A stretch of DNA of 64,000 nt from Gammaproteobacteria bacterium (GCA_023266055.1 JAHFRW010000009.1:2709-66708), one strand, 5' to 3'; positions 12,663 to 57,354 are shown, counted from the first letter of the stretch. The notes: generated by a model from the sequence alone, not told the origin. Program-made: numbers and translations.

Positions 12663-14140
12663 GCGGGTGGGCGGGCGGAAAGCTGCATCGACACGGCTGT
12701 GCAACGGATGCAGGTGCCTTAGCCCTGCTTATCCTCGCCCTGCTGGGCTTCAAGGCCTGGCTCACCCAGACGGCGGGTTTCGACCTGCATTACGACGAAG
12801 CCCAATACTGGGAATGGTCACAGCAGCTCGACTGGAGTTACTACTCCAAAGGCCCGTTACTCGCCTGGTTGATCGCACTCGCTGAAACCCTGTTCGGCCA
12901 TGGCGAATGGCAGGTACGCCTGTTTGGCTGGCTTGCCCATGGCATCCTGCTGGCACTGGTCTTTTTCTTTGCCCACGATGTATGGGGCAACCGCCGGGCC
13001 GCCTGGTGGGCCACGATCATCACCCTGTTCACGCCGCTGTATTTCACTCTCGGCATGGTGATGTCTACTGACATCTTCCTCTTCACCTGCTGGACCTGGG
13101 GATTATGGGCCATCTATCGTGCGCTCTTCAGGACTCAACCCTGGGCATGGTATGAAGCAGGGGCCGCCATCGGCATCGGCGCCCTGACCAAACTCAGCAT
13201 CGGCCTGCTGCCGTTCTTTGCGGGCCTGCTGATTATATTCACCCCCGCGCTACGTCATCACCTGAAAAACCCGCACGTATGGGGCGGCGTGGCGGTATTG
13301 TTGGCCCTCATGAGCCCGGTACTCTTCTGGAACGCCACGCACAACTGGGTAATGTTCCGCCACGAAATGGGGCATGTACAAGGCAGTGGCTCGAATCAAT
13401 ATCTGCATCTACTACCCGATTTCATCGCCGGACAATTCATGGCACTATCACCCGTGGTGGCGGCACTCGCCATCAGCGTGTTGTGGCGACGTCCGACGCT
13501 CCCGGACCAACGTTTTTTATGGTGGCTGGCACTGTGCTGGATCGGCTTTTTCGCCTTCAAGGCACTCAGCGCCAAGGTACAGATTAACTGGCCCGCACCC
13601 AGCTACATTGGCCTGCTGATACTGTTCGCCGGACACATCCCGGCGTTTTCCCACCTCAAACGGCGTCTGCTATACACGGGCATAGTACTGGCGACGGCAC
13701 TCATGGGCATCGCCTACTTCCCGCATAAATTTGGCCTGGGTGATCCTTTCAAAGACACCAAGGCATGGCAGCAGCCCATTACCGCGCTGGCCACACACAC
13801 CCCCGACAATGATTTTATTTTAACAGAATCCTACGCCATGGCCGGCGAACTGGCCTTTTACTGGCCACGTCGCGTACCCGTATATGTCACTGGCAACAGT
13901 GGCCGACGTTTTAATCAACACGATCTCTGGCCCAGCATCGACCGGGAAGCGGGTCGTAACGCCATTTTTGTCAGCAGCAACCCGCAACCCCCTCCACAAC
14001 TCACCCAAGCCTTTGACGAATGCACCGCCCTGCCCCCCATTGCAGCGCGCGCCGCCGATGGCCGGGTACTGCGCACCTTCTATGGAAGCACGTGCAAAAA
14101 TTACCGCCCGATTGCCTGGCCGGTGCCTGGGTCATATTAG
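12659..14140 (+). CDS. GT39-family glycosyltransferase (ArnT/PMT-like; transfers a sugar from undecaprenyl-phosphate carrier to lipid A or another periplasmic acceptor)
   Basis: 493 aa polytopic protein with an ArnT-like N-terminal region (YDEAQYWEWSQQLDWSYYSKGPLLAWLIA); GTG start overlaps the GT2 stop codon. Confidence 0.85.
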   Translation: MSGWAGGKLHRHGCATDAGALALLILALLGFKAWLTQTAGFDLHYDEAQYWEWSQQLDWSYYSKGPLLAWLIALAETLFGHGEWQVRLFGWLAHGILLALVFFFAHDVWGNRRAAWWATIITLFTPLYFTLGMVMSTDIFLFTCWTWGLWAIYRALFRTQPWAWYEAGAAIGIGALTKLSIGLLPFFAGLLIIFTPALRHHLKNPHVWGGVAVLLALMSPVLFWNATHNWVMFRHEMGHVQGSGSNQYLHLLPDFIAGQFMALSPVVAALAISVLWRRPTLPDQRFLWWLALCWIGFFAFKALSAKVQINWPAPSYIGLLILFAGHIPAFSHLKRRLLYTGIVLATALMGIAYFPHKFGLGDPFKDTKAWQQPITALATHTPDNDFILTESYAMAGELAFYWPRRVPVYVTGNSGRRFNQHDLWPSIDREAGRNAIFVSSNPQPPPQLTQAFDECTALPPIAARAADGRVLRTFYGSTCKNYRPIAWPVPGSY

Positions 14141-14497
14141 GATGCTTTGGCAGATGGAAAAAACCCCTGTCATTATTTGAGCATTATCCGCAAAACATTG
14201 ACTTCCACCTTTACCAGTGCCTAAACTTGCACTAAGCGCGTCATTAGAAAACTTGCCGCCACTCATTCATTGACCGTCGTTTTCTTCAACGCAGTTACAA
14301 CACAACAACCGCCTGAAACACACGGAGATACAGTACCGGGGTATTTTTCGTTTATGACTCATCACACCCTCACGCGCAGAAAACACCGGCCATCCATGAA
14401 CCATTACGGAGGAAATCTTGCCGTACGTTTTTAACATCGACACACATAACCCGTAAAACAGTCCACCCGATTCTCAACCATTAGGAAGGAACCCGAT

Positions 14498-15517
14498 ATG
14501 CAGATCAAGAAGGATATAAGAACCTATTCAACATCTCGATCCATGGCGTGCGTTCTCATGATATTCGGCGTACAGGACGCCATGGCAGATGCTAATGAAG
14601 TGACACCTGTACAAGTGATCGACGCCATTGAGGCGACGTTTGGTGTGACCCCCGGTGAGCGTCGTAATCACACCAAGGGAACGTGTGCCGTGGGTGAATT
14701 TGTTGGCACTAAAGACATCACCAGATTCAGTCGTTCCGCACTCTTCTCCGGCAAACAAATCCCGGTAATCGCACGTTTCTCATTGGCAGGCGGCAACCCC
14801 AAGGCACCGGACACCGCAAAGAGCGGGCGCGGCATGGCACTGGAATTCAAATTGCCTGACGGTACCCTGCATCACATGACCATGCTTAATACCCCGATGT
14901 TCGGCGCGGCACAACCACGCACTTTTTTGGATTTCATGGTAGCGATAAAACCGGATCCGGCAACGGGCAAACCGGACTCGGAACGTATCAAAGACTTCAA
15001 GGCCAGCCATCCAGACAGTAAGGCACAGGCCGATTTCATGTCTCACAATAACCCCCCCACCAGTTACGCCAACAGCGCGTATTTTGGCATTCACACCTTC
15101 AAGTTCATCAATCAGAAAGATCAAACCACATTGGTGCGTTGGCACTTTGTTCCACAGGACGGTGAAAAGCAACTGGACGAGGCCGCGCTCATGTCAGCAC
15201 CCGCGAATTTTCTTGAATCCGCACTCATCAAACGAACCGCACAAAGTGCCGCCAAATGGGACATGATAATAACGCTGGGTGAACCAGATGACGCGCAGGA
15301 TGACCCGACCATGACATGGCCCTCGACCCGCAAGCAAATCAAGGCGGGAACCCTGAGCATTACCGAAGCCATGCCACAAAAAGGCGCCAGTTGTGAAAAA
15401 ATCAACTTTGACCCCTTGGTGATAAGCGACGGTGTTGCAGCCACCCAGGACCCGATACTGTTGTTCCGCTCCCCGGCATACGCTATTTCATCTTCCAAAC
15501 GGCTCAGCGGCCAGTAA
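14498..15517 (+). CDS. Catalase-related peroxidase (catalase-like haem domain, SrpA-type), secreted
   Basis: 339 aa with a signal peptide; catalase-related core (RFSLAGGNPKAPDT..., HTFKFINQ). Confidence 0.75.
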   Translation: MQIKKDIRTYSTSRSMACVLMIFGVQDAMADANEVTPVQVIDAIEATFGVTPGERRNHTKGTCAVGEFVGTKDITRFSRSALFSGKQIPVIARFSLAGGNPKAPDTAKSGRGMALEFKLPDGTLHHMTMLNTPMFGAAQPRTFLDFMVAIKPDPATGKPDSERIKDFKASHPDSKAQADFMSHNNPPTSYANSAYFGIHTFKFINQKDQTTLVRWHFVPQDGEKQLDEAALMSAPANFLESALIKRTAQSAAKWDMIITLGEPDDAQDDPTMTWPSTRKQIKAGTLSITEAMPQKGASCEKINFDPLVISDGVAATQDPILLFRSPAYAISSSKRLSGQ

Positions 15518-15547
15518 AAACACCCCATAATGTCCCGCTCCACCCCA

Positions 15548-15580
15548 CCTCATCCCAGACCGCAATGTCTGGGATGAGGC
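15548..15580 (+). terminator. 13-bp perfect-stem hairpin downstream of the catalase-related gene (terminator-like, no T tract)
   Basis: cctcatcccagac-cgcaat-gtctgggatgagg seen directly. Confidence 0.3.
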
Positions 15581-15729
15581 ACCTGTGCAAACCCTACCGC
15601 TAACCGCTATTTATAACACCCTGCAAATATGGCAGAATGCTTGGTTGATCGCGGCAGAGCGGCCAAGGCTTGAACTTGCCGCTTTCGGCCCCATCTAAGC
15701 AATTGTGTGTTTAACCTGTGGAGTTTTGA

Positions 15730-16620
15730 ATGAAGCGCATCCTGTTATTTTTGGCAACCAACATTGCAGTACTGGTGATATTGAGCATTTCCATGCGACT
15801 GCTGGGCATCGAAGGCATCCTTGACAAACAAGGCGTTGATTTAAATATGAATTCTCTGTTGATTTATGCAGCCATCATCGGCATGAGTGGCTCATTTATT
15901 TCGCTGGCAATATCCAAATGGACCGCCAAACGCATGATGGGTGCGCGGGTCATTGAACAACCCGCCAATGCCACTGAAAAATGGCTGGTGGATACGGTAC
16001 GCCGTCAGGCAGAAAAAGCCGGCATCGGCATGCCCGAGGTTGCCATTTTCGACTCACCCGATGTCAACGCCTTTGCCACGGGCATGCGCCGTAATAACGC
16101 CCTGGTGGCCGTCAGCACCGGATTATTGCGCGCCATGGACCAGGATGAAGCCGAAGCGGTGCTGGCACATGAAGTGAGCCACATCGCCAATGGTGACATG
16201 ATTACCCTGGCCCTGATTCAGGGCGTGGTAAATACTTTTGTAATCGTACTATCTCGCGTAATTGGCCATTTTGTAGACCGCGTGATATTCAAAACCGAAC
16301 GGGGTCATGGCCCTGCTTTCTGGGTCACGGCCATTGTTGCGGAATTGGTGCTGGGAGTGCTAGCCAGCATCATCGTAATGTGGTTCAGCCGTCGCCGCGA
16401 ATTCCGTGCCGATGCAGGTGGCGCCAGCCTGGCCAGCCGTGACAAAATGATTGCGGCGCTTGAGCGTTTGAAACAGGGCGTAAACCAGCCTCATCTGCCC
16501 GATCAAATGGCCGCGCTTGGCATTTCGGGCGGCATTGGACATGGCCTCAAACGCCTGTTTATGACCCACCCGCCTCTGGAAGAGCGGATTGCCGCACTGC
16601 GTGCACAGCAACGCCGTTAA
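15730..16620 (+). CDS. htpX: Protease HtpX (M48 zinc metalloprotease)
   Basis: [10 protein letters not shown] zinc motif; four TM segments; 296 aa; strong N-terminal similarity to HtpX. Confidence 0.9.
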
Positions 16621-18630: not shown

Positions 18631-18889
18631 GTTTATAAACTCCAGTCAGAAACTCAGGGTTGCGCATTCAATTCACGTCGAACTTGCTTTGGGCGCTAAC
18701 GTAACGAAATTGAGCGACGCTCGCAGCACATAATGCCAAGGAAGATATGAAAAGCTTCCTTTTCTGCATCCGACCTGCATGGGTGCAGAACCGCTACTCT
18801 GGCAGCAGGCCAGAGAGCGGCTATGCCCTCGTCGGCAACCGTTCTCTGCATCGCCCTACCTTCTCCATCCGTGGCGTCAGGCGAGGTTA

Positions 18890-19162
18890 TTATTTTGTTA
18901 AAATTAACTTTCCATTACTGGTCAATCGCAAACGATATTCTTCACCTGCATGCTCGATAATCAGCTCACGCAAGCCCTTGAGCAAATCACTGCTGGAAAC
19001 ACGCGGTAACACAGCAGGCATGCGCTCAACTTTACGCACTGGCGGCTCTTCCACTACCGTGCATTCACCGCGCCTCCTCGGCAACTGCTGCTCCGCGGCT
19101 CTTGCGTATTCCGTGCCCGGCGGATGTGTTCTTGTACCTGGATTTTGATCGTCTTCAGTCAT
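18890..19162 (-). CDS. hemP: Hemin uptake protein HemP/HmuP-like small protein
   Basis: C-terminus ...EYRLRLTSNGKLILTK matches the HemP signature (Y.LR.T..GKLILTK). RBS AAGGATGG lies upstream of ATG 19162. A Fur-box promoter sits immediately upstream. Confidence 0.6.
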   Translation of the reverse strand: MTEDDQNPGTRTHPPGTEYARAAEQQLPRRRGECTVVEEPPVRKVERMPAVLPRVSSSDLLKGLRELIIEHAGEEYRLRLTSNGKLILTK

Positions 19163-19183
19163 ATATAGCAAACACCATCCTTA

Positions 19184-19220
19184 TTGAGAATGATTATCAT
19201 TTACATATTTAACTTTGTCA
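19184..19220 (-). promoter_or_regulatory. Sigma70 promoter (TTGACA-N17-GATAAT) with overlapping Fur box (AATGATtATCATT); repeat copy X
   Basis: Minus-strand reading cTTGACAaagttaaatatgtaaatGATAATcattctc. The 6-1-6 palindrome AATGAT-T-ATCATT is the Fur box core. Confidence 0.55.
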
Positions 19221-19558
19221 AGAAAATTTTTAAGCGGGGATATTTATATTGTTTTACGATCTCGCGGAACCCCGGAACTGCTCCTGGCAATTCTTGTGCA
19301 TCCCAGCATGTAGCGGTGTGCTCCTGCATTGCCCCACCTTCCGCAGTGGTCGTCTTTGCTCCAGTGATATGCAAGGGGCCTCGTTCCGGCGTGCCGGGAT
19401 CGTGCTGCGCCAAGCGCATACCCGTCGAAATATCCCACAAGAAATAATCAGAATCACCATGCTTCGACGGGCATCTGACAAATTACGGTGAGATGGCCCT
19501 TTGGTTACAATAATTAGGACTCCTTTACATTCTCGCCGGGATCTGATACCGTTTCAAT

Positions 19559-20203
19559 ATGGAGCCATGGGATTCAATTACGCCAAAAATCGACACCCGG
19601 ATCGTTGCCGCGTTCGGAAAACTCTCGCTTGCGATGAGAATCTCCGCCAGGAAAACCGCAACCCGCGAGGATTTAACGCCCACACAAGCGGAAATCCTCG
19701 CGTTGCTTGACGTCAGGGTCGAATCTTTAAGACTCTCCACGGTGGCTGAGCAACTGGGAGTTACATCTGCGACTGCTAGTGAGGCGGTGGAAACGCTGGT
19801 GGCAAAGGGACTCATTACCAAGACGCCCGCCGCCGATGATCGCCGGGCGTTGGCCATTAAGTCGACCCGTAACGGAAAAAAAATAGCTAAACGAGCCGAT
19901 CACTCAAATGAATTTGTAATAAAGGCACTCAAAACCTTCAACGACTCCGAGCGAGAGATGCTTTTAACCATTTTATTGCGCCTGATTGGAGAGTTCCAGG
20001 CCCGTGGGGATCTGCCCGCGCTACGGATGTGTCTCACCTGTAAATATTTCGAACCCAATCGACACCCTGACAAAGACGTACCCTATCATTGTCATTTGGT
20101 CGGCCAACCACTCCCCGCCTCATTTATGAGGGTCGATTGCGCAGAACACGACGAGACTTCCTCATTAGAACAGCAAAAGAACCGGGCTGCTTTTGCGTTT
20201 TAA
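19559..20203 (+). CDS. MarR family transcriptional regulator with Cys/His-rich C-terminal extension
   Basis: Winged-helix MarR core (LTPTQAEILALL...LGVTSATASEAVETLVAKGLI...DRRA). The tail ...CLTCKYF...HCHL...DCAEHDE suggests metal or redox sensing. Confidence 0.85.
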   Translation: MEPWDSITPKIDTRIVAAFGKLSLAMRISARKTATREDLTPTQAEILALLDVRVESLRLSTVAEQLGVTSATASEAVETLVAKGLITKTPAADDRRALAIKSTRNGKKIAKRADHSNEFVIKALKTFNDSEREMLLTILLRLIGEFQARGDLPALRMCLTCKYFEPNRHPDKDVPYHCHLVGQPLPASFMRVDCAEHDETSSLEQQKNRAAFAF

Positions 20204-20240
20204 ATTTTCTTAATTTAGCCCTTTTATTTAGGAGTCCTAT

Positions 20241-20960
20241 ATGAATAGTAAAGCTTTTAATTTAGTCGGTCTAGCCTTGAGTGGTCTTTTCACTTCAGGT
20301 ATTGCGAACGCTGCCCCTGTCATCTCGCAGAAGCAGGTCACAGCAAAGCACGCGGCTTTCGACATTGTGAAAACCGATATCAAGGTAAACGAGAAAAATA
20401 ATTGGCTTGAATTCACAATGGAAGTAACGGGTACCGCAGGAGCCGTCAAGCCCAGGAAGACAGGCAAATTTGCGAACAGTGATGTCTTCTCATATGTATG
20501 GCCAACAAAGATTGATCCGGCTGAAGTGGGATTTAACAAAGGTGCTGGCATTCTCGCACTGGCAGTAACGATTCATCCAGACTTCGATGACACACCGTTA
20601 TTTTCTACCAAAGGCGCTGACTGGCACACCCACTGGGTTGTGCTTGGGCCAGACGATGCGTGTGGGAAAGATTCACTTAAAGTGCTGGATATCAAAGACG
20701 GTACAAAACCCAGGCTCCCCAAGACGTGGCCCGGCGTTCCCCTTCTCATCGATAGCCCCGGGTACGCCCCACACTTTCAAAGAAAAACGCTGACGGTACG
20801 GGTTCCTTTTGACAACCTGGATAGCGTCAAGGGCACCGCCTTTGATGGCGTGACAGCGGGCCTTAAGGTCAATGCGAGCACACACAACCCATTGTTGTGC
20901 GTCGCCAATATATTCGACGTTGCATCGGGAGATTTAACGCTCCCGGGCAAAGTGGAATAA
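20241..20960 (+). CDS. Secreted hypothetical protein (signal peptide)
   Basis: 239 aa; N-terminal signal peptide ...GIANA/AP; no recognised domain. Confidence 0.55.
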   Translation: MNSKAFNLVGLALSGLFTSGIANAAPVISQKQVTAKHAAFDIVKTDIKVNEKNNWLEFTMEVTGTAGAVKPRKTGKFANSDVFSYVWPTKIDPAEVGFNKGAGILALAVTIHPDFDDTPLFSTKGADWHTHWVVLGPDDACGKDSLKVLDIKDGTKPRLPKTWPGVPLLIDSPGYAPHFQRKTLTVRVPFDNLDSVKGTAFDGVTAGLKVNASTHNPLLCVANIFDVASGDLTLPGKVE

Positions 20961-21000
20961 CGGGTGTTTCAGCCCATTCACTCACTTAAGGAGAAAGATC

Positions 21001-21237
21001 ATGAATCAAAAAGCAGTTTTCTACCATGCAGGCTGTCCCGTCTGCGTTTCGGCCGAACAAGAAGTCGCTGCGGCATTAGATCGAAATCGCTACACCGTCG
21101 AAACGGTACATCTGGGTGAAACAAAAAACCGCCTGAGAGAAGCCGAAGAAGCGGGGGTCGTATCGGTGCCCGCGCTGGTGATTAACGGACAAGCGTATCA
21201 TATCAACTATGGTGCGCCACTGTCTGCTCTCAAATAA
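21001..21237 (+). CDS. Small thioredoxin-fold protein (CPxC; glutaredoxin-like)
   Basis: 78 aa; CPVC active-site-like motif near the N-terminus; VPALVING near the C-terminus (cis-Pro region of the thioredoxin fold). Confidence 0.7.
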   Translation: MNQKAVFYHAGCPVCVSAEQEVAAALDRNRYTVETVHLGETKNRLREAEEAGVVSVPALVINGQAYHINYGAPLSALK

Positions 21238-21246
21238 AATGAGATT

Positions 21247-21281
21247 TAATCTCGTCACGAAAGTCAACTTCGTGACGAGAT
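21247..21281 (+). terminator. Perfect 14-bp stem hairpin immediately after the thioredoxin-like gene
   Basis: aatctcgtcacgaa-agtcaac-ttcgtgacgagatt; no T tract, so it may be a protein-binding palindrome or a factor-dependent terminator. Confidence 0.35.
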
Positions 21282-21402
21282 TATCTGCAAGAGCGTCCTG
21301 AAAGAAATCGATATGCCTAACGTCCTACGACAGGCACTAAAATGAAGGCGATCGCATGGCGTCAATGTTGACGCTCTCCTAAAGATTGCCACACTGCAGG
21401 GA

Positions 21403-21743
21403 ATGGTCATCATGCTTCATGTTTTTAAAATACCCTGCTCGGGTTGCATTCGGTGCTTGAATATCATCAAGTGACGACGCCTGAACCCATGGCAGTATTT
21501 ATGGATGAACAGCGGCTTCCTTTTACAATTGAAATTGACACATACACTGATAAAAACGATATGCCATTAACCATGCAGGAATATCGCCTGCAGGTAACAT
21601 CAACGACAGTGTTGATCGATCAACGCGGACGAATCCGGTTACAGAAATTCGGTACGATTGACGACTTAACGCTCGGCGTACGCGCGGGAATCCTCATAGG
21701 CAAATATCAATCGGTCAATCCAAATGAAATCTCTAATACATAA
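21403..21743 (+). pseudogene. Decayed thioredoxin-fold (TlpA/ResA-like thiol-disulfide oxidoreductase) gene remnant with frameshift and internal deletion
   Basis: Frame 1 reads MVIMLHVFKIPCSGCIRC...* (CxxC). After a shift, frame 2 continues with TlpA-like C-terminal sequence (...TTVLIDQRGRIRLQKFGTIDDLTLGVRAGI). The N-terminal signal and beta1-alpha1 region are absent. Confidence 0.3.
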
Positions 21744-22428
21744 AAATTATGTCCTGAACGCACTTCTGACCGGGCGAGTGGTTCCGTTCGGCTCTAACGG
21801 GTCTTTTAGTGCAATCCATAAACAGCCCGCGAACCACGCTATACAAGTCACCTTCACAGGCTTAGCCGGTGACGCACAAGCAGACCGCATACACCATGGT
21901 GGTATAGAAAAGGCGCTGCACCATTATCCACTTGACCACTATCCCTATTGGTATGCGTATTTGCACGCGCCACCGACATCACTCCCAGTCGGTGCATTTG
22001 GAGAAAACTTGTCTACGTCTGGCTTGACCGAGGACGACGTGTGCATTGGTGATGTGTTTAAACTTGGCTCGAGCGTTATCCAAGTCACACAACCTCGACA
22101 ACCTTGCTGGAAATTGAATGCCCGCTTCAATCATGTCCATATCGCACGCCACATGCAGCGGATGGGGATGACAGGTTGGTATTATCGCGTAGTCAAGGAA
22201 GGTGATGCAGCACCACAAGAAGAACTGATTTTTTCATCCCGACCAAATCCGCAATGGAACATCGCGCGCGTTGTATCTTTGCTTTATAAACGCGAAGAAG
22301 ACCGACGCAGCATTGAGGAATTAGCCAATGCAGCAGGGATCGGCAAATCGCTTTCGGCTTTGCTACATAAGCGACTCCGTACTGGTCAGGTGGAAAGTTG
22401 GGCCGACAGGCTGGGCGGTTACTTCTAG
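21724..22428 (+). CDS. MOSC domain protein (YiiM-like; N-hydroxylated base-analogue/hydroxylamine reductase family)
   Basis: 234 aa; MOSC beta-barrel with a conserved Cys (QPRQPCWKL) and a C-terminal 3-alpha helical domain. Confidence 0.85.
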   Translation: MKSLIHKNYVLNALLTGRVVPFGSNGSFSAIHKQPANHAIQVTFTGLAGDAQADRIHHGGIEKALHHYPLDHYPYWYAYLHAPPTSLPVGAFGENLSTSGLTEDDVCIGDVFKLGSSVIQVTQPRQPCWKLNARFNHVHIARHMQRMGMTGWYYRVVKEGDAAPQEELIFSSRPNPQWNIARVVSLLYKREEDRRSIEELANAAGIGKSLSALLHKRLRTGQVESWADRLGGYF

Positions 22429-22506
22429 CCGTTACGACAGGATATGACAAACTGAAAAAAGCTATCAGAGCATGGTCACCGCTCCAACCCCGCGGGGTTC
22501 TTATGG

Positions 22507-23235
22507 CTACCCATGTGAAACGTCAACAGGCTCTAGTACATCTGCCAGCCATTCATTCCAGAAACAACTTGCTTGCGCGTGCAACCGGACTCCGAACTCC
22601 AGTGCATTCTTTCTGAGGTCATTGACCGAGACGTCTGGTGTCCCGGCGATCTCACACGCATGCCCGATGAGCCATCGCTCAAAGTCAGCAGGCAAAATCT
22701 CCGGATGGAATTGCAACCCGAGCGCCCGTTTCCCATATTTGAACGCCTGATTTCGATAACCGGATGTGGAGGCAAGCAGCGTAGCGCCCGTCGGTAAATC
22801 AAAGGTATCACCATGCCAATGCAACACTGATGTGGTACTACCGTCCAAATATCTAAAGGCTGGTAACTGGCGTATATTACTTAAGGACAGTGGGAACCAG
22901 CCGATTTCTTTGCCGGATCCAGGGTAGACCGCTGCCCCCAGTGCACGAGCCATCAGTTGTGCCCCCAGGCAAACCCCTAAAGTTGGTCTGTCCATTACCA
23001 GACGCGCCTGCAGAATTCGTACCTCTTCAATCAAAAATGGATAATTTTCCTCCTCATATGCGCCTAATGGTCCACCAAGAACAACCAATAGATCCGGCTC
23101 CAGAGGATCGAAGGCTTTGAGATTGGTAACGCCCGCCTCAAGATACTGGATCGTACCACCCAATTGCTCTATGGAAGCGGCTAGACTCCCAAGATCCTCA
23201 AACGCAACATGTCTTATCGCGACTACTTTCATCAC
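22507..23235 (-). CDS. Class I glutamine amidotransferase domain protein (stand-alone GATase1)
   Basis: 242 aa; catalytic Cys context LGVCLGAQL and an His/Glu region (FHPE) typical of triad GATases. Confidence 0.85.
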   Translation of the reverse strand: MMKVVAIRHVAFEDLGSLAASIEQLGGTIQYLEAGVTNLKAFDPLEPDLLVVLGGPLGAYEEENYPFLIEEVRILQARLVMDRPTLGVCLGAQLMARALGAAVYPGSGKEIGWFPLSLSNIRQLPAFRYLDGSTTSVLHWHGDTFDLPTGATLLASTSGYRNQAFKYGKRALGLQFHPEILPADFERWLIGHACEIAGTPDVSVNDLRKNALEFGVRLHAQASCFWNEWLADVLEPVDVSHG

Positions 23236-23251
23236 TGGGCTCCTGAAAAAT

Positions 23252-24253
23252 TCAGTTAATCATCAATCCACGATCAATAAAATTGCGGCGACACACTTCA
23301 TCGTCCAGCATCCCAACCTCACTGGCCAGCGCAGTAATACCGTTGAAATTCACCCGCTCAAGTCCCTGTTGATTGAGAAACCTGCAGTCCTTGATCATTT
23401 CCGCAACTCCATTGACGCGTAACTGAACAAGCATTCGATGCCAAACATCCAACTCAAGATCCGCAAACCAAAGAATGGGGCAAGGTAAAATTTTAGCGAA
23501 AAAACTCCTTTGTTCTTTGTTCATGGCGCCATAGAAACACTTGACCAATGACTTGAAAATCTGGCTATGTGCCAGTTCGTCGTGACGATGCGCTGCCACG
23601 GTCTCTCGATTGAGAGGTTGAATTGTTTTATCTTCAGAAAGTAAATGAAGATAATCACTGACAAATATCTCCGATACGACGCATGTTGCCAGCTGAACGA
23701 GCTGCCTTTTCCATATTTCGGCATGTTTAGCCTTTTCGGCTTCCATGAAATGGACAAGATTAAATGTTGGAATGTGGACGTATTGCAGGCCGCGTTGTTC
23801 ACGAGTCACGCGATTGGCGTTTTTCACGAGCAAAATATGGTAAGCCTCATCAACCAGCGTCTCACAGATAATCTGCTTTGTGGTTTCATTTTTCAGACCC
23901 GGAATCTTTTCATCAAGGATATCAATACACGCTGGGCTCACGATAGATGTTTCAATTGCAACCGTCTTTTCGTTGTATGCCAACCAGCCGCAAGAAAGAA
24001 TTTGCCTTTGCGTCTCATCTGCCAACCCCAAGTAAATGGGGTGATTCTTAAAGGGTAAGAGGTCTGCCCGAAAGTCGACACATTCCGCATCGTAGCGCAA
24101 CTCCAACTCGTCTTGCTTCACTTGTGCGCGGCTGTGCCAGCCACCCGCAATGCGATCTAAAAGATCCCTGACTTTCGAGAGATTCTCTGGGTGGCTGTTG
24201 TGTTGTTGATGGGCACCGGAAGAGTATGATGTTTTTGAAGTGGCTATATACAT
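23252..24253 (-). CDS. AurF-like ferritin-fold di-iron oxygenase (p-aminobenzoate N-oxygenase family candidate)
   Basis: Two ExxH motifs about 90 residues apart (ETLVDEAYH and HRHDELAH) plus additional conserved Glu/His, with the length and spacing of AurF/CmlI. Start set at ATG 24253, which has AAGGAG 7 nt upstream. Confidence 0.6.
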   Translation of the reverse strand: MYIATSKTSYSSGAHQQHNSHPENLSKVRDLLDRIAGGWHSRAQVKQDELELRYDAECVDFRADLLPFKNHPIYLGLADETQRQILSCGWLAYNEKTVAIETSIVSPACIDILDEKIPGLKNETTKQIICETLVDEAYHILLVKNANRVTREQRGLQYVHIPTFNLVHFMEAEKAKHAEIWKRQLVQLATCVVSEIFVSDYLHLLSEDKTIQPLNRETVAAHRHDELAHSQIFKSLVKCFYGAMNKEQRSFFAKILPCPILWFADLELDVWHRMLVQLRVNGVAEMIKDCRFLNQQGLERVNFNGITALASEVGMLDDEVCRRNFIDRGLMIN

Positions 24254-24319
24254 AAATCGCTCCTTGAACTTAATGGCTGGACAACCATGCACCCAGTTGA
24301 TTGCATAGTCTTGCGCGCC

Positions 24320-25592
24320 TTATTGATAACGACCAGATATGAATTCACCGTGAGGCATATCCAGGCCGTTTTGCATATTCCACACTTTTACAACTTCATC
24401 AGTGGCGGGGTCGATTTTGACGATGTGATTACTGACAAAACTGCTCACAATTACCGCCGTCTGATCCGGCGTGGAAAGGCTCGTGTGTGCGTTGACAAAA
24501 TCGCTGGGTAATTCGTAGCCCGGACGCATGCGTTTGATGAATACCGGATAATTGATATCTGAAATATCAAAAATCGAGATGTAACCCTCTTGGCCGAATG
24601 TAAGATCCATAGAATCTTCCTCAGCCACATACATCTTATCGTGAGCAATTGAAACAGAGGAAGCTGAACGGTAAATACCGGGGGCATCCACACTGTTAGC
24701 CGTGCCTACGATCATTTTTGACGTCGATGAGCCAGACGCTTGGCCCAATTACCGAACCATTCTCCGGCGTGAGCGAAGTTGGCCCGAGTTGCATCGTACC
24801 GACAACTGCATAACGGTTATCGATCCAGGTTGTGTAGTGTGCGAACGCCGCATAAACTTCCTTGGTGCCGAGAGAAATGGAACGTTTCCAATTGACAGCC
24901 CCCGTCGTTTTATTCGGCACAAAAACTTCTATGGTACCCTGATCAAGATGATAGCCCGCCACAATGCCAAAAGTGCCAGAAAGATTAAAATTGACCCCAT
25001 GTTTCTGGGCACTTTTGCTACCAAAACTTCTGGTACTGACAACGGTCGTTTGTCCGCTCGCACTGGTCTTGAAACTGCGGATGCGATTATCTGTCCAACC
25101 CGTGGTGAAGCTAAATTTCGTGCCTGGCAGCATCGTGGGTGCATGAATCTGTGAAGCCGTCGGAAACCACCAGGGTGGAATGGGCTGGGTGCCGCTTGTT
25201 TGTGTAACGACAGGAAAATTGGACTTTGTGCCCGGCTTGTCGACCTCCAATACATGGGTGAGCCTAATATCTGCCCGACCCGCATCGAAATTGATGCCAT
25301 CAACCTTTAGTGTAACTATAGAGGCGCCGTAGGTCTCGTTAGTGTTTGTGCTGACATAGATTGTTTTTTCATTGGGTGTCACCCAGGTATGTTGGCAAAC
25401 CGCCTTAGGCATCCCGGGCAAACCAACCAACGGGTGTTTGATTAAGATATCTTTTTCAAGATCAATCAAAAGCAATTCACAAGACATCATGTTTACTGCC
25501 GTGTAAAGATTGTTTGCAAACGCCGGTGGCACAACCAAACCCAGGGAGGCTGAAAATAAAACCGTAGTGAGATTTTGAGTTAATTTGGACAT
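24320..25592 (-). CDS. Secreted beta-propeller-like protein, interrupted by a frameshift at an A5 run (~24715-24725)
   Basis: Signal peptide MSKLTQNLTTVLFSASLGLVVPPAFA with AAGAGGAG upstream. ORFs 24696..25787 and 24320..24748 are consecutive parts of one protein in different frames, joined at gtcAAAAAtga. Confidence 0.55.
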
Positions 25593-26423
25593 GTATTTCT
25601 CCTCTTTAAAAACATTTGATTGTCGAGCGCACCTTTGCATGGTCGGAAACAACAGACGGCCCACAAAGACGTTAAAGTGTGTCGCCGTACTCGTGATATA
25701 TTTTGGGACATCCCAGTCCCCAAAATGACTGCGCTCGGCGACAAGTATGCCTTCGGCGCCCGGACAGGCCTGCGTTCGCCACGACACGCGACTACGCAGC
25801 GCGTCATGGCGACCACAATGCCGCTACGCCTGTCGTTGTTTCCCCATGTTGTCTACACGGGGGTTATCGCACACATTCCGACAACACAGGGAAACCTCGG
25901 CTATCCGGGGGGTGCCCGCCACCGCTCGCTTTCGCGTCGCTCTCCCTGGCGGGCGCCGGAGTCCCCACCGAAACCGCTGAAAACATGATCATAACCGCAA
26001 TGCTTCGGCTCGTATGTTTGATAAATTACGGTGAAATTATTGAGGGACGGCTTCCTCTCCCCTGCTTAATTTATACCGGTGATCATGTGGCGGTGTATTG
26101 CACACTAGCAGCTATTTGTTACAATTAGCAGTACTAAATATGTGTTCCCATAAAAAAATAAAAGTAACGATCCAGCCTGTTGACTCAACTTCATCCACCT
26201 CCCTTTGTAGGGTACTCGACAACTTAAGCGATGATGCGTTACAACTCGGTTGCAAATGGAAAAGAATTAATTGGTGGCGGCATGACAATCAGTACAGGCA
26301 CCCACCACTGCCCATCCATCACCGCTACCGCCGTTGACATCTACCATAACATCGCCCACATAGAACTTGCGACACTACTGCAACCACCCGGTGCTTGATC
26401 ATGAAATATATCCGTCTCATGAA

Positions 26424-26460
26424 TAAGAATAATTACATTTACATATTTAATTTTGTCAAG
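26424..26460 (-). promoter_or_regulatory. Second copy (Y) of the ~38-bp promoter module (TTGACA-N17/18-GTAATT, degenerate Fur box) firing leftward into a long leader upstream of the beta-propeller/AurF-like/GATase operon
   Basis: atttacatatttaa(t/c)tttgtcaag shared with copy X at 19198-19220. Confidence 0.45.
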
Positions 26461-26505
26461 TGGATTGATAGCGTTAAATTCAAGAAGCATGCGCTTTTCG
26501 TTGCG

Positions 26506-27186
26506 TCACACGTCTGCCCACATCCGTAACAGGTTGTGATAACAGCCCGTGAGATCCACCGCCGCTTCCGTGTCACCCTGAGTTTCACGTACCCGCAGAA
26601 TTGCCATATCCAGATCAAACAGCAGACGCCGCCGCTCATCCTCGCGCACCATGCTTTCAATCCAGAAGAAAGAGGCGAGACGGGTGCCATGCGTGACGGG
26701 TTCGACCCGATGCACACTGGTACCCGGATACAAAATCAGATCTCCAGCGGGTAATTTGACCCGCTGCTCACCGAAGGTGTCTTCGATCACCAGCGCGCCG
26801 CCGTCATAGGACTCGGGGTCAGCCAGAAATAGCGTGGCCGAGAGATCGGTGCGCACGCGTGATCCACTGGTGGCGATGCGGCGGATTGCGTTGTCGACGT
26901 GATTGCCGAAACTCATGCCGCCCTCGTAGCGGTTAAAGAGCGGCGGAAAGATCTGCCTGGGCAACGCCGCTGTGAAAAACAGGGCACTACGTTCGAGCGC
27001 CGCCAGCACGATGCGGCCAGCCATACGCGTGGCTTCGCAGTCTTCGGGCAATTGCAGGTTGTGCTTGGCCTGGGCCGACTGGGTGCCAGCGGTGATGCCG
27101 CCATCGGCCCACGGCGCAGATACGAGCACGGTGCGTATCTGCGCAAGCTCATCGGTTGTCAGAATTTCTGGAACGTGGAGTAGCAT
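26506..27186 (-). CDS. piuC: PKHD-type Fe(II)/2-oxoglutarate-dependent hydroxylase PiuC
   Basis: 226 aa; HxD...H 2OG-oxygenase core (FGNHVDNA...H); classic partner of a Fiu/PiuA-type catecholate receptor, which lies immediately upstream. Confidence 0.85.
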
Positions 27187-27402: not shown

Positions 27403-29799
27403 TTAAAACTTCGCTCCAAAGGTAAGCTGCACGGCGCGCTTGGTTCCCGGTATGGAATGCCCCGCGTACACGCCTTCATAGTAGTCTTTGTCCAGGAGAT
27501 TCAGAACGTTCAGCTTTACCGAGTACTTGTCCCAACCATATTGAGCCATCGCATCCCATCGCCAGTAACTCGGCACGGCGTTGATATTGGTATTGTTGGC
27601 ATAGCGCCGCCCCGCGCCTTCTACACCGCCGCCAATCTTCCAGCCACCGCCCAGCTTATACGTATTCCACAGATTAGCCGTGTACTTGGGCGTATTAAGC
27701 GGCGTGTTGCCGCGTGTGTTGGCTTGCTGCGCGGCGGCAACATCAATCTCCGCTGTCATCAATGCTAGCGCGCCAAAAACGTCCCAGTCGGGAGTGATGC
27801 GCCCCACACTTTCGAACTCGATGCCATCCGTGTGGCGTTTTCCCGAAAGCAGATATTGGGTGCTGGCCAGATCTGTATTGCGCTCATTGGTTTTTTCAGA
27901 GCGGAAGATGGCGGTGCGCAACGACAGATTCCCGTCGATCAAATCCCATTTCGCGCCCACCTCAATGTTGCGATTTTTCTCTGGCGGCGTGTTGGCAGAA
28001 CGGTCATCAAGCTGATAAAGCTCCGCCGAGGGGTTGAACGAGGTGCCGTAAGAAACATAATACGTGGTCAGATCAGGCTGGTACATCACGCCAGCACGAT
28101 AGCTCCACACGTTATCGGTGCGCGACAGGTCACCGGCCGGGGCGGGACGGGCATAATCCGCCTTGAGTTGATCATGGCGCGCGCCCAGCACCAGTTTCCA
28201 CATAGTTGCCAGATCCATGACATCCTGCGCGTAAAGTCCAATGGTATGCGCCTTGTAGGTAACATCATCGGTGGGGGTTCTGTCCAGAAATCCGGAGGCG
28301 AGCGGTGGATTCGGATCGGGATTGCCGACGGTGGTGGGTGGATTGATGCCCGTGTTGACGTAGTTCCAGCGATGCGCTTTTTCCTGCATCAACTCCAGGC
28401 CGGCCAGCAATTGATGCTTGATTCCGCCCGTGTTCAGCTTCGTGGTGAAGTCGGTCTGGCTGGTGATGGTGTCTTCTTCACCGCCGCGCGCCTGGCGACC
28501 ACGACAAACAATCGTGCTCCCGGTGATAATTGTTGGGGCAGCGGTAACGCACCCTGTCCCTGTCAGCCGTGGCGCTACAACCCGCAAATCACGTTCGTAG
28601 TCAGCCACGCGCAGCACAGTGCGAACTGAGGTATCGGGATTAAACCGGTGGATGTAACTTGCCGTAGCAATACTAGTTTGGTTGCGCTCATAATCAGCAT
28701 TGGCCATGCCATAAAACCGTGTGACTGGCACGTCGAGAGGCCGACCCTGGAAATAAGGCACGCCGTAATCCGGAATATTGTCTTCTTTTAGATAGTAGTA
28801 AGACAGCGCAAATTCGTTGCGGGTACCTATCCCCCACCGCACTGAAGGTGCAATGCCCCAGCGCTCTTGATTCACCGCATCGCGAAAACTGTCGGTATCG
28901 GTCTTCATGAGATTGACGCGCACTGCGGCATCCTGGCCCACCATCTTATTCAAATCGGCAGTAAGGCGCTTATAGTCGAACGAACCCAGCGTGAGCGTCG
29001 CTTCGTTGCGATCAGCCAGAGAAGGTTGCTTGCTGACCTGATTGATAATGCCGCCCGTCGAACCGCGGCCAAACAGCATCGACGCGGAGCCGCGCAGAAC
29101 ATCAAGCTGCTGGAGGTTAAAAACTTCGCGGTTGTACTGGGCGACATCGCGCATGCCGTCTAGATAAAGATCACCTGCCGCCGAGTAACCGCGTATCGTG
29201 ATATTGTCGCCAATGCGTCCGCCCTCGCCAGCGTTGAAGGTAAGACCAGCGACATTGCGTAGCGCCTCTCTAAACGTGGTGGCGTTGCGATCCTTCATCA
29301 ACTGCTCGGTAACGACAGTGACCGATTGCGGAATATCGCGTGGTAATTGTTGCAGCTTGCCAACGCTGGTCGTGTCGCCCTGGTATCCCTTCGCTTCACT
29401 ATCGCGTTCCGCCTTGACTTTCACTTCGGGGAGGCTTTCCTCTTTCGACTGTGCGGCGGCTTGACCAGCATCGGGTTCAGGCTGTGCAAACGCCGGATTT
29501 GCGACCAGAATCAAGGCTAGGGTTCCGGCACTGACGGCCCCCAAAGGCAATAGTCTGCCAATTTTTAATGGATGGCGTTTGCTTGTCAGACAGTTCTTGC
29601 TGAATCCTTCGCTTTCGCTCTTCCCTGCGCTCACCGCACTTGTGCATCCGCCGTGCAGGGATGCACAAGTGCCGCCAGAGGCACGACTGCATGGATGCAG
29701 GAGGTAGAGCAACGCCGGGAGCGGTTGCCGAGGATGCCGAAAGCGGCCTGCCTGGCGAATGTTTTTTTCTGAAGGTGTCACGAGTCGCATGTGTTTCAT
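27403..29799 (-). CDS. TonB-dependent outer-membrane siderophore receptor (Fiu/PiuA-like). The called ORF includes ~80 upstream codons that are probably 5' leader; the signal peptide begins near 29565
   Basis: Plug and 22-strand barrel features; C-terminal ...TFGAKF. Signal peptide KIGRLLPLGAVSAGTLALILVANPAFA/QPE is about 80 aa inside the ORF, and the upstream part coincides with repeat element A. Confidence 0.9.
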   Translation of the reverse strand: MKHMRLVTPSEKNIRQAGRFRHPRQPLPALLYLLHPCSRASGGTCASLHGGCTSAVSAGKSESEGFSKNCLTSKRHPLKIGRLLPLGAVSAGTLALILVANPAFAQPEPDAGQAAAQSKEESLPEVKVKAERDSEAKGYQGDTTSVGKLQQLPRDIPQSVTVVTEQLMKDRNATTFREALRNVAGLTFNAGEGGRIGDNITIRGYSAAGDLYLDGMRDVAQYNREVFNLQQLDVLRGSASMLFGRGSTGGIINQVSKQPSLADRNEATLTLGSFDYKRLTADLNKMVGQDAAVRVNLMKTDTDSFRDAVNQERWGIAPSVRWGIGTRNEFALSYYYLKEDNIPDYGVPYFQGRPLDVPVTRFYGMANADYERNQTSIATASYIHRFNPDTSVRTVLRVADYERDLRVVAPRLTGTGCVTAAPTIITGSTIVCRGRQARGGEEDTITSQTDFTTKLNTGGIKHQLLAGLELMQEKAHRWNYVNTGINPPTTVGNPDPNPPLASGFLDRTPTDDVTYKAHTIGLYAQDVMDLATMWKLVLGARHDQLKADYARPAPAGDLSRTDNVWSYRAGVMYQPDLTTYYVSYGTSFNPSAELYQLDDRSANTPPEKNRNIEVGAKWDLIDGNLSLRTAIFRSEKTNERNTDLASTQYLLSGKRHTDGIEFESVGRITPDWDVFGALALMTAEIDVAAAQQANTRGNTPLNTPKYTANLWNTYKLGGGWKIGGGVEGAGRRYANNTNINAVPSYWRWDAMAQYGWDKYSVKLNVLNLLDKDYYEGVYAGHSIPGTKRAVQLTFGAKF
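29606..29762. repeat. Structured repeat element, copy A (5' leader region of the TonB-dependent receptor gene)
   Basis: Contains a perfect 14-bp hairpin gcacttgtgcatcc/ggatgcacaagtgc, the ggaggtagagca box, a bulged stem-loop and a gccGAAAgcggc hairpin; about 85% identical to copies B and C. Confidence 0.5.
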
Positions 29800-29923: not shown

Positions 29924-30469
29924 TCATCTCGACCGTAGGGACGACTGCATGGCCACTTCTTCCGGCATCCTGCCTCTTGCGGCACTTGTGCGTCCATGCA
30001 CATCGGATGCAGGAGGTAGAGCAACGCCGGGAGCGGTTGCCGAGAGATCTTTCTCCGGCTCACTCACAAACCCAATCTTTGAAAGACCAACCTTGGCTGC
30101 CTCCGCCATTACGTCGGCCAGCACCTGGTAGCGCGTATTCCTGTCAGCGCGCAGGTGCAGCTCCGGCTGTGGCGTTTTGCGGGCTTCGCTGGCAAAGCGT
30201 GCCATGACAGCGGCCTTGTCGATGGCCTCGCCATTCCAATAGAACGCGCCACCAGCGTCGATCGCAAGTTCGATCTTGTCTGGCTTGGTCAGGGTGGGCG
30301 ACGACGAGGCTTTGGGCAGGTCAATCTTGACCGCATGCGTGAGTAACGGCGCAGTCACGATAAAGATCACCAGCAGCACCAACATCACGTCGATCAGCGG
30401 TACCATGTTGATTTCGGCTATCGGCTGCGGGCCACCGGATTTGCTGAACCCACCGAAAGCCATGGTCAA
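29924..30469 (-). CDS. exbD: Biopolymer transport protein ExbD, with an unusually long C-terminus that reads into repeat copy B
   Basis: MAFGGFSKSGG..INMVPLIDVMLVLLVIFIV is canonical ExbD/TolR; the 181-aa length compares with the usual ~140. Confidence 0.85.
   Translation of the reverse strand: MTMAFGGFSKSGGPQPIAEINMVPLIDVMLVLLVIFIVTAPLLTHAVKIDLPKASSSPTLTKPDKIELAIDAGGAFYWNGEAIDKAAVMARFASEARKTPQPELHLRADRNTRYQVLADVMAEAAKVGLSKIGFVSEPEKDLSATAPGVALPPASDVHGRTSAARGRMPEEVAMQSSLRSR
29941..30044. repeat. Structured repeat element, copy B (rearranged or partial), overlapping the exbD 3' end
   Basis: Shares acgactgcatgg ... gcacttgtgcgtcc ... ggatgcaggaggtagagcaacgccgggagcggttgccgag with copy A. Confidence 0.45.
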
Positions 30470-57230: not shown

Positions 57231-57354
57231 TTTTCTTTAAAAACAGCGCATCATATGCACCTGGTTTTTTAATGATTTAACCAAAAATATTATGCTGCAA
57301 GACCGCGAAGCCTTGTTTATTCACTTTATTCAGGTACCACACATGAGGAGTCCC

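Follow-up and report, generated by a model that had tools for sequence, protein, structure and literature searches.

A partly decayed copy of a cross-phylum gene module, with Dnf-like features, inside the TonB/heme-uptake locus of a gammaproteobacterium

An oxygenase of the AurF family and a class I glutamine amidotransferase are encoded side by side in a 64,000-nucleotide stretch of DNA from a gammaproteobacterium (GCA_023266055.1, JAHFRW010000009.1:2709-66708; here called the window, with positions counted from its first nucleotide), and the question raised by this pair is what it does together with the genes that surround it. An initial annotation of positions 18631 to 26505 described a lower-GC, iron-regulated accessory island made up of two operons and proposed a small undescribed pathway for making or handling an N-oxygenated metabolite under iron limitation. 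We examined the window by using an open reading frame (ORF) listing and hidden Markov model (HMM) scans against Pfam and NCBIfam, on which the gene map is based, together with a context survey of 80 genome loci carrying oxygenases of the same branch, designated clade P. The reading toward which we lean is that the region preserves, in partly decayed form, a module found across phyla which, by analogy with characterized systems, would N-hydroxylate glutamine-derived nitrogen in a Dnf-like manner and release hydroxylamine, accompanied by protective and regulatory genes.

The 333-amino-acid protein matched PF11583 with 167.6 bits (gathering score, 29.6) over profile positions 5 to 282 of 282, which bears out its earlier assignment to the AurF-family di-iron oxygenases. 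Its best solved-structure matches were PDB 5hyg (158 bits), which we take to be CmlI, and AurF (3chh, 113 bits), with sequence identities of 33% to CmlI and 29% to AurF. All ligands of the di-iron site are kept: E101, E136, H139, E195, H222, E226, and H229 were invariant in an alignment of 27 homologs, and these residues, four carboxylates plus three histidines of which one is the extra histidine of the HxxxExxH motif, align with the matching motifs of CmlI and AurF. DnfA, whose ligands are reported as E88, E123, H126, E182, H209, E213, and H216 (PMC9478400), has them at the same spacing (35-3-56-27-4-3).

Membership in the family does not extend to orthology with any of its characterized members considered here. 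The oxygenase showed 28% identity (143 bits) to the DnfA homolog of Alcaligenes sp. SDU_A2 and 25% identity (66 bits) to SaAmOx, a TsnB7 homolog whose sequence was taken from the supplement of PMC13418202. Clade P formed its own branch apart from DnfA in a neighbor-joining tree, a tree without bootstrap support values. Orthology to DnfA was rejected on both its identity and its separate branch, and orthology to TsnB7 was rejected on its identity. Identification as AurF proper, the 4-aminobenzoate N-oxygenase (NCBIfam NF045603), was likewise rejected, as the protein scored 124.8 bits against a cutoff of 620. Clade-P members with at least 40% identity were found in Proteobacteria, cyanobacteria, Actinobacteria, Planctomycetota, and Myxococcota, and no characterized member of the clade was found in the literature.

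The amidotransferase gene lies on the same strand, 16 nucleotides (nt) from that of the oxygenase, and gives a link to the Dnf system. Its product contains the GxCxG and HPE motifs and scored 306.5 bits against NF005458/PRK07053 (cutoff, 250). The DnfC homolog of Alcaligenes sp. SDU_A2, to which it is 48% identical (214 bits), scored 335 bits against NF005458, so that the two proteins belong to the same NCBIfam equivalog. Amidotransferases adjoining clade-P oxygenases in other phyla are 44 to 58% identical to that of the window, and the value for DnfC falls inside this range. Assignment as a PabA-like (PabA/TrpG-type) amidotransferase was rejected (TIGR00566, 26 bits against a cutoff of 121). 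The best solved match was PDB 9xfs (219 bits), whose relatives come from Alcaligenes, Delftia, Verminephrobacter, Andreprevotia, Jeongeupia, Pseudomonas, and Burkholderia, the same genera that are on record as dnfABC carriers (PMC11440038).

In the Alcaligenes sp. SDU_A2 locus (L086), serine hydroxymethyltransferase (SHMT), aminotransferase, MocR, and second SHMT genes are accompanied by those for the AurF-family DnfA, the FNR/Fer2 protein DnfB, the amidotransferase DnfC, and a pyridoxal-kinase-like protein, which is the published dnf layout. In published work, DnfA, DnfB, and DnfC are assigned to the conversion of glutamine-derived nitrogen to hydroxylamine (PMC9478400, PMC11160463, PMC11440038); DnfAB is reported to hydroxylate glutamine and DnfC to hydrolyze the resulting hydroxamate (ACS Catal 2023, cited in PMC11160463). 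The activity of dnfABC requires glnA, and Escherichia coli carrying dnfABC produces hydroxylamine (PMC11440038). The pairing of such an oxygenase with a class I amidotransferase matches the DnfA/DnfC principle, described since 2020-2022 (PMC9478400, PMC11160463, PMC11440038), and the proposal of an undescribed pathway was too strong. A related gene set in Vreelandella nigrificans (L089, 769-6693) combines a DnfC-family amidotransferase with MocR, a YggS-like protein, a class III aminotransferase, and SHMT and contains no AurF-family oxygenase, which means that the amidotransferase and its set of pyridoxal phosphate enzymes also exist independently of N-oxygenation.

The context survey showed how often the two core genes lie together. 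A DnfC-like amidotransferase gene was found on the same strand within 400 nt downstream of the oxygenase gene in 34 of the 80 loci and 400 to 1,500 nt downstream in another 16, where a gene for an FNR+Fer2 reductase or a rubredoxin lies between the two in the loci examined; it was thus just downstream in 50 loci and, with 5 more in which it lies elsewhere within 10 kb, present in 55. A subclade of 13 loci has an asparagine-synthase-type enzyme in place of the amidotransferase. Whichever of these two partners the oxygenase has, it is a glutamine-amide enzyme, and this is our main argument for a glutamine-amide or gamma-glutamyl substrate. Reductase partners recur as well, with a DnfB-like FNR+Fer2 reductase in 21 loci and a rubredoxin in 13, as do MocR (10 loci) and SHMT (8 loci).

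The co-occurrence of the beta-propeller, AurF-like, and amidotransferase genes, first suggested by the window, was confirmed in other genomes: the propeller gene is present in 26 of the 80 loci, immediately upstream of the oxygenase gene in 24, and the amidotransferase is encoded in all 26. The genes for the MOSC protein (13 loci), the secreted 239-amino-acid protein (11 loci, 10 of them with the propeller), and the thioredoxin-like protein (7 loci) are likewise conserved with the oxygenase, as are those for AhpC/TSA and MarR. The proposed linkage of an N-oxygenase to an N-hydroxy reductase fits these data, as the amidotransferase was found in 13 of 13 MOSC loci. The module ranges over Burkholderiales, Nitrosomonadales, filamentous cyanobacteria, Streptomyces, and Actinoplanes. 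No published work linking a propeller or MOSC protein to dnf-type genes was found.

The closest genome is a metagenome-assembled genome (MAG) named "Nitrosomonadales bacterium GL97" and assigned to the order Nitrosomonadales (L001, identical to L006; contig JAYWDZ010000003). Its genes lie on one strand in the order MarR, 239-amino-acid protein, thioredoxin-like protein, AhpC/TSA, MOSC, propeller, AurF-like oxygenase, amidotransferase, rubredoxin reductase, and second amidotransferase, and tblastn also gave rubredoxin-like matches. Members in Burkholderiales and Paraherbaspirillum have the whole set on one strand, together with genes for an AhpD-like CMD protein, DUF2024, and MarR, and the full modules of L009, L074, and L041 add AhpD-like, AhpC/TSA, and MarR genes. 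Paraherbaspirillum soli KACC 12633 is a carrier available in culture. Since all genes share one strand in these relatives, the two operons described in the window correspond to a single module elsewhere. MocR, SHMT, and aminotransferase genes, which also belong to the dnf cluster, accompany the Tistrella and gammaproteobacterial members, and in Streptomyces a SARP-type BTAD/NB-ARC/TPR regulator follows the module. In the Burkholderiales MAG L009, genes for a flavohemoglobin (globin, FAD, and NAD domains) and a NirB-type nitrite reductase flank the intact module (3630-4874 and 13596-16265), a setting that points to reactive-nitrogen metabolism.

The mechanism we propose takes DnfA/B/C of Alcaligenes and TsnB7/TsnB9 of Streptomyces as its models; family memberships, metal ligands, gene linkage, lesions, and promoter orientation are observed, and substrate, product, and accessory roles are inferred. 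Electrons would reach the oxygenase from a rubredoxin system or an FNR/2Fe-2S reductase, and the oxygenase would N-hydroxylate glutamine, or a gamma-glutamyl compound close to it, at the amide nitrogen; the amidotransferase would then hydrolyze the gamma-glutamyl hydroxamate and so release hydroxylamine. The propeller may be a metalloenzyme that acts on this diffusible product, and the YiiM-type MOSC protein, the thioredoxin-like protein, AhpC/TSA, and the four-cysteine MarR regulator would serve in protection against, or sensing of, N-hydroxylated and reactive nitrogen species. In the present genome the block is inverted and has lost its native upstream region and the neighboring reductase genes, the propeller and AhpC/TSA genes are inactivated, and the set, with a copy of a hemP promoter on either side, appears to lie within a TonB/heme-uptake locus under Fur control.

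The properties of the accessory proteins are consistent with such roles to different degrees. A model of the propeller built on an 84%-identical ortholog (predicted local distance difference test [pLDDT], 87.6) has a predicted fold matching solved seven-bladed propellers of the YVTN/lactonase-like kind. Six histidines and an EED triplet were invariant across 30 homologs from three phyla, and a metal site may lie in the central channel. Proteobacterial propellers carry Sec-type signal peptides for export and are predicted on that basis to be periplasmic; the actinobacterial proteins have none, and this difference fits a small, diffusible substrate. The actinobacterial propellers (L026, L029-L033, L085, and others), with their gene directly upstream of the oxygenase gene, start at a conserved MHILTGVNMM motif, and the cyanobacterial ones have an N-terminal extension of ~200 amino acids.

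The MarR-family regulator has a C-terminal extension in which C158, C161, C178, and C194 were invariant among six cluster-linked homologs (Betaproteobacteria and one cyanobacterium), and this extension may be an Fe-S or zinc sensing domain. Cluster-linked MarR proteins with a CxxC...C...C extension are also encoded at L001 5449-6102, L041 13957-14610, and L036 13408-13902. Homologs of the secreted 239-amino-acid protein have visible signal peptides; the protein gave no Pfam or NCBIfam match and, with a profile of eight homologs, no PDB match, and its single-sequence AlphaFold model was unusable (pLDDT, 39). YiiM, YcbX, and mARC have a role in reducing N-hydroxylated compounds. The MOSC protein of the window matched the Pfam MOSC (117 bits) and YiiM_3-alpha (24 bits) families and scored 183.8 against the NCBIfam model for 6-hydroxyaminopurine reductase, under its cutoff of 294. 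A perfect hairpin with a 16-bp stem (21247-21283) lies between the thioredoxin-like and AhpC/TSA genes; because it is kept in L001 (~7135-7175) at a synonymous divergence (dS) of about 1, it is possibly a regulatory or terminator element.

The features of the region are collected in Table 1. The ORF listing recovered the gene order, the strands, and the intergenic gaps of 27 and 16 nt that had been described, and the HMM scans upheld the calls of MarR, Thioredoxin_3, MOSC with YiiM_3-alpha, class I amidotransferase, and AurF. To the left of the module lie genes for HtpX, a GNAT protein, and a DmeF-type CDF exporter, and to its right those for PiuC, a TonB-dependent receptor, ExbD, ExbB, and TonB. 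Elsewhere in the window, a 1,020-amino-acid ORF (59393-62455, plus strand), preceded by ORFs at 57292-58359 and 58359-59393, contains a complete E2 acyltransferase (lipoyl, E3-binding, and 2-oxoacid_dh domains) and a complete E3 dihydrolipoamide dehydrogenase (Pyr_redox_2 and Pyr_redox_dim); either E2 and E3 are joined here in an unusual fusion or a stop codon has been lost.

Table 1. Features of the module and its borders in the window
Feature	Position	Strand	Basis or remark
hemP (hemin uptake protein)	18890-19162	-	Pfam PF10636, 67.5 bits; flank gene outside the module
Promoter module, copy 1	19187-19222	-	TTGACA-17-GATAAT; overlapping Fur box at 19186-19204
MarR-family regulator with C-terminal four-cysteine extension	19559-20203	+	Pfam MarR_2, 43 bits
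Secreted 239-amino-acid protein, fold unassigned	20241-20960	+	HPDFDDTPL and WHxHWVVL motifs conserved
78-amino-acid thioredoxin-like protein, CPVC motif	21001-21237	+	Pfam Thioredoxin_3, 33 bits
AhpC/TSA-family thiol-oxidoreductase pseudogene	21313-21743	+	Intact ortholog in L001, PF00578
YiiM-type MOSC protein, putative molybdenum cofactor-dependent reductase of N-hydroxylated compounds	21724-22428	+	MOSC and YiiM_3-alpha
Terminator-like hairpin 3' of the amidotransferase gene, between the convergent gene sets	22464-22488	-	Pattern scan only
DnfC-family class I glutamine amidotransferase, possible gamma-glutamyl amidase	22507-23235	-	NCBIfam NF005458/PRK07053
AurF-family di-iron oxygenase, 333 amino acids, clade P	23252-24253	-	PF11583
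Seven-bladed beta-propeller gene with signal peptide, broken by a 14-nt deletion near 24717	24320-25595	-	
Noncoding spacer of ~830 nt at the inversion breakpoint (earlier "leader")	25596-26425	-	
Promoter module, copy 2: degenerate hemP-type promoter and 5' end relic	26426-26460	-	

Comparison with L001 revealed damage that the initial annotation had missed, namely, two pseudogenes, an inversion of the three-gene block, and the lack of a reductase partner encoded in the window. The propeller gene, taken before as intact, is split into overlapping ORFs (24696-25595 and 24320-24748) through loss of 14 nt (AGAATGGCACATCC) relative to L001, where the ortholog is a single 428-amino-acid ORF with 84% identity. 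Short AA(G/A)AATG repeats flank the deletion, and homopolymer slippage was rejected as its explanation. The same deletion is present in the Logan assembly of run SRR14366785, which may derive from the same reads. The plus-strand gene formerly read as a TlpA-like remnant is an AhpC/TSA-family pseudogene: its ortholog in L001 is intact (168 amino acids), and the window copy matches in two frames, is interrupted by an in-frame stop and by small indels, and has lost part of the CxxC motif to a 76-nt deletion. The ratio of nonsynonymous to synonymous substitution rates (dN/dS) relative to L001 was 0.05 to 0.11 for all eight gene segments, both propeller halves included, and because every segment shows such a value the decay is probably recent.

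Relative to L001, the propeller-oxygenase-amidotransferase block has been inverted, and it retains only 14 nt of its native upstream region. Upstream of the block lies the stretch of ~830 nt that had been described as a leader. The stretch itself was recovered, and its reading has changed to that of a noncoding spacer at the inversion breakpoint: it contained no credible ORF and showed no similarity to the relatives L001 to L085, its only match being the same sequence in L005. No Rfam match was obtained at gathering thresholds in the whole window, and none at E values up to 1 for positions 25500 to 26520. A structured RNA was rejected on the absence of an Rfam match, an ORF, and similarity to relatives.

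The 36-nt promoter module is indeed repeated, in two copies that are 92% identical, in direct orientation, and 7.2 kb apart, but both copies read toward the minus strand, and copy 1 drives hemP, a gene missing from the initial annotation, rather than the MarR operon. Copy 1 has an 11/12 match to the sigma-70 consensus, with the hemP start codon 24 nt downstream of its -10 hexamer, and its Fur box (16/19 match) is the only one in the 64 kb at three or fewer mismatches, where chance alone would give 0. In copy 2 a single nucleotide is missing from the -10/Fur-box region, and neither the promoter scan nor the Fur scan picked up this copy. The metagenome locus L087 has the same promoter with an intact box, in the ancestral promoter-hemP arrangement, and because the sequence downstream of copy 2 still resembles the hemP promoter, 5' untranslated region, and start codon of that locus, copy 2 is most readily understood as the remains of a hemP promoter. 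A 31-amino-acid cysteine-rich ORF (MRRIYFMIKHRVVAVVSQVLCGRCYGRCQRR; 26325-26420, minus strand) follows copy 2; as its start resembles the L087 hemP start MAKHTQ, it is probably a relic and not a gene.

The claim of iron regulation was not borne out, given that the good Fur box belongs to hemP and copy 2 is degenerate; in addition, no consensus Fur box within three mismatches was found in the intact relative L001, which leaves iron control of the module unsupported. A divergent plus-strand promoter over the Fur box could drive the MarR operon, to judge from 9/12 pattern matches only. The order TonB-ExbB-ExbD-receptor-PiuC-relic promoter-7.2 kb-promoter-hemP suggests that the segment sits inside a Fur-controlled uptake locus. 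A GC-rich palindromic element resembling repetitive extragenic palindromes, with the core TGCAGGGATGCACAAGTGCCGCC, occurs in intergenic positions 11525-11561, 29646-29683, and 29969-30001 and also at 18829-18878 and 19279-19308, and the same element is present in the related contig L087 (2703-2742 and 7347-7386).

The lower GC content of the segment was reproduced (0.489 versus 0.522 for the window; lowest 3% of 7.2-kb windows; gene-wise Mann-Whitney p about 0.007), as was a lower mean third-position GC of its genes (0.507 versus 0.569; Mann-Whitney p about 0.006). The signal is weak, however, and regions at 2 to 9 kb and 36 to 44 kb are equally low; the label of accessory island depends on this signal. 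A more apt description is a module that is conserved widely and here lies within a TonB/heme-uptake locus. Its flanks differ from those in L001, which is better evidence of mobility of the module than GC content. No integrase or transposase was present among the ORFs scanned against Pfam, and no empty insertion site was found: a metagenome scan with the promoter motif gave one contig, L087, which was rejected as an empty site, its organism being too distant.

Several observations weigh against a module that releases hydroxylamine. The oxygenase is no nearer to DnfA (28% identity) than to the arylamine oxygenase CmlI (33%), and direct action of DnfA on glutamine is itself disputed (PMC11440038). 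PRK07053 amidotransferases occur without an AurF-like gene, as in L089, so that the amidotransferase alone is no proof of the pathway, and the fold matches of the propeller are generic and provide no functional assignment. No DnfB-like, rubredoxin, or rubredoxin-reductase gene was found by tblastn in the 64-kb window, nor does the window contain a MocR, SHMT, or pyridoxal-kinase-like gene. With two pseudogenes and a lost upstream region, the module may no longer work in this organism. Rather than producing hydroxylamine, the genes might form a biosynthetic cassette for an N-oxygenated metabolite (nitro, nitroso, azoxy, or hydroxamate), with the oxygenase acting on an aryl- or alkylamine in the manner of AurF and CmlI and the amidotransferase supplying the amino group. 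The closest solved homolog, 5hyg at 158 bits and presumably CmlI, would agree with this, and regulators of the type that follows the Streptomyces members are typical of secondary-metabolite clusters. The subclade with an asparagine-synthase-type enzyme also recalls the formation of hydroxamates by TsnB9 (PMC13418202). We nevertheless regard a biosynthetic cassette as improbable, as the amidotransferase is of the DnfC type and not the PabA/TrpG type, the conserved neighbors are redox, protective, and regulatory genes, and no scaffold-forming enzyme (PabB/aminodeoxychorismate synthase, nonribosomal peptide synthetase, polyketide synthase, or ligase) was present among the conserved neighbor clusters of the oxygenase-partner pair.

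The abundance of protective genes, and the flavohemoglobin and NirB beside the module in L009, would also be accounted for by a defense against hydroxylamine or nitrosative stress, in which the di-iron enzyme would oxidize free hydroxylamine; MOSC, AhpC/TSA, the thioredoxin-like protein, and the propeller would remove N-hydroxylated and reactive nitrogen species; and the four-cysteine MarR would act as the sensor. The assignment of the closest genome to the Nitrosomonadales, an order in which hydroxylamine is an intermediate in the metabolism of some members, agrees with this as well. DnfA was found to bind hydroxylamine and to convert it to N2 in vitro (PMC9478400), but this activity needed very high enzyme concentrations and has been ascribed by others to abiotic chemistry (PMC11160463), and dnfABC leads E. 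coli to produce hydroxylamine (PMC11440038). Defense would moreover leave the tight cross-phylum coupling to a glutamine-amide enzyme unexplained, and we hold it to be improbable. It is also possible, if doubtful, that this organism carries a nonfunctional remnant in the course of being lost, whatever the intact module does elsewhere. Two pseudogenes, one of them with several independent lesions, an inversion that removed the native upstream region and left a degenerate promoter 830 nt away, and the lack of a reductase partner in the window favor such a remnant; the other genes, however, are full length with intact catalytic residues, dN/dS values relative to L001 are low, the reductase may be encoded elsewhere in the genome, and the oxygenase and amidotransferase often occur without the propeller (amidotransferase in 55 of 80 loci, propeller in 26 of 80).

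Hydroxylamine formation by heterotrophic bacteria is still debated, and the published work that we found concerns dnfABC of the Alcaligenes type. The distinct oxygenase clade described here keeps the same amidotransferase partner and spans at least three phyla, and it is accompanied by a conserved propeller, the secreted protein, the MOSC protein, and a cysteine-rich MarR regulator. If the intact module does form hydroxylamine, more organisms would be able to feed reactive nitrogen into the environment, and new candidate enzymes for hydroxylamine handling would become available. A bolder extension, which we put forward tentatively and consider unlikely, is that the intact module represents a second, undescribed lineage, broad in its phylogenetic spread, of glutamine-dependent production of hydroxylamine or reactive nitrogen, in which the propeller would be a novel metalloenzyme with hydroxylamine or its N-hydroxy precursor as substrate and the four-cysteine MarR a dedicated sensor. 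The window alone is of lower value in this respect, being an inverted copy with two pseudogenes and with its reductase neighbors lost.

Among known systems, the closest to the core of the module is the "dirammox" system of Alcaligenes (dnfT1RT2ABCD), in which an AurF-family oxygenase likewise adjoins a PRK07053-type class I amidotransferase. The two share the identical spacing of the seven metal ligands and amidotransferases of one equivalog with 48% identity, and relatives of the window oxygenase carry the DnfB-like FNR+2Fe-2S reductase, MocR, SHMT, and aminotransferase genes. In contrast, the oxygenase belongs to a separate clade with 28% identity to DnfA, the window itself is without DnfB, MocR, SHMT, and the pyridoxal-kinase-like gene, and many clade-P members use rubredoxin and rubredoxin reductase in place of DnfB. 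The propeller, the 239-amino-acid protein, MOSC, AhpC/TSA, the thioredoxin-like protein, and the four-cysteine MarR are all absent from the Alcaligenes locus L086. The core thus resembles the Dnf type but has a distinct oxygenase clade and conserved partners that are absent from that locus and were not met in the literature searched.

A similar logic is seen in the TsnB6/TsnB7/TsnB9 cassette of Streptomyces (trichostatin A and benzohydroxamic acid), where a di-iron "amidooxygenase" converts glutamine to gamma-glutamyl hydroxamate, the N-hydroxy group of which is then dealt with by a glutamine-amide enzyme; the 13 clade-P loci with an asparagine-synthase-type partner use the enzyme class of TsnB9. 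Unlike that cassette, the window has a class I amidotransferase and no AsnB-type/asparagine-synthase gene in the region, no gene for a TsnB6-like accessory subunit was identified, and there is no acyl acceptor pathway. AurF and CmlI belong to the same Pfam family and have the same seven-ligand di-iron site, but they are only 29 to 33% identical to the window oxygenase and have other genomic partners, and no aminobenzoate or aminophenyl precursor genes lie near the module. The MOSC protein shares the architecture of the E. coli reductases YiiM and YcbX, a MOSC domain with the YiiM three-helix domain, but, with its score under the equivalog cutoff, it is probably not the E. coli YiiM ortholog. 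By analogy with these enzymes, reduction of N-hydroxylated compounds by the MOSC protein would fit beside a neighbor that forms hydroxylamine.

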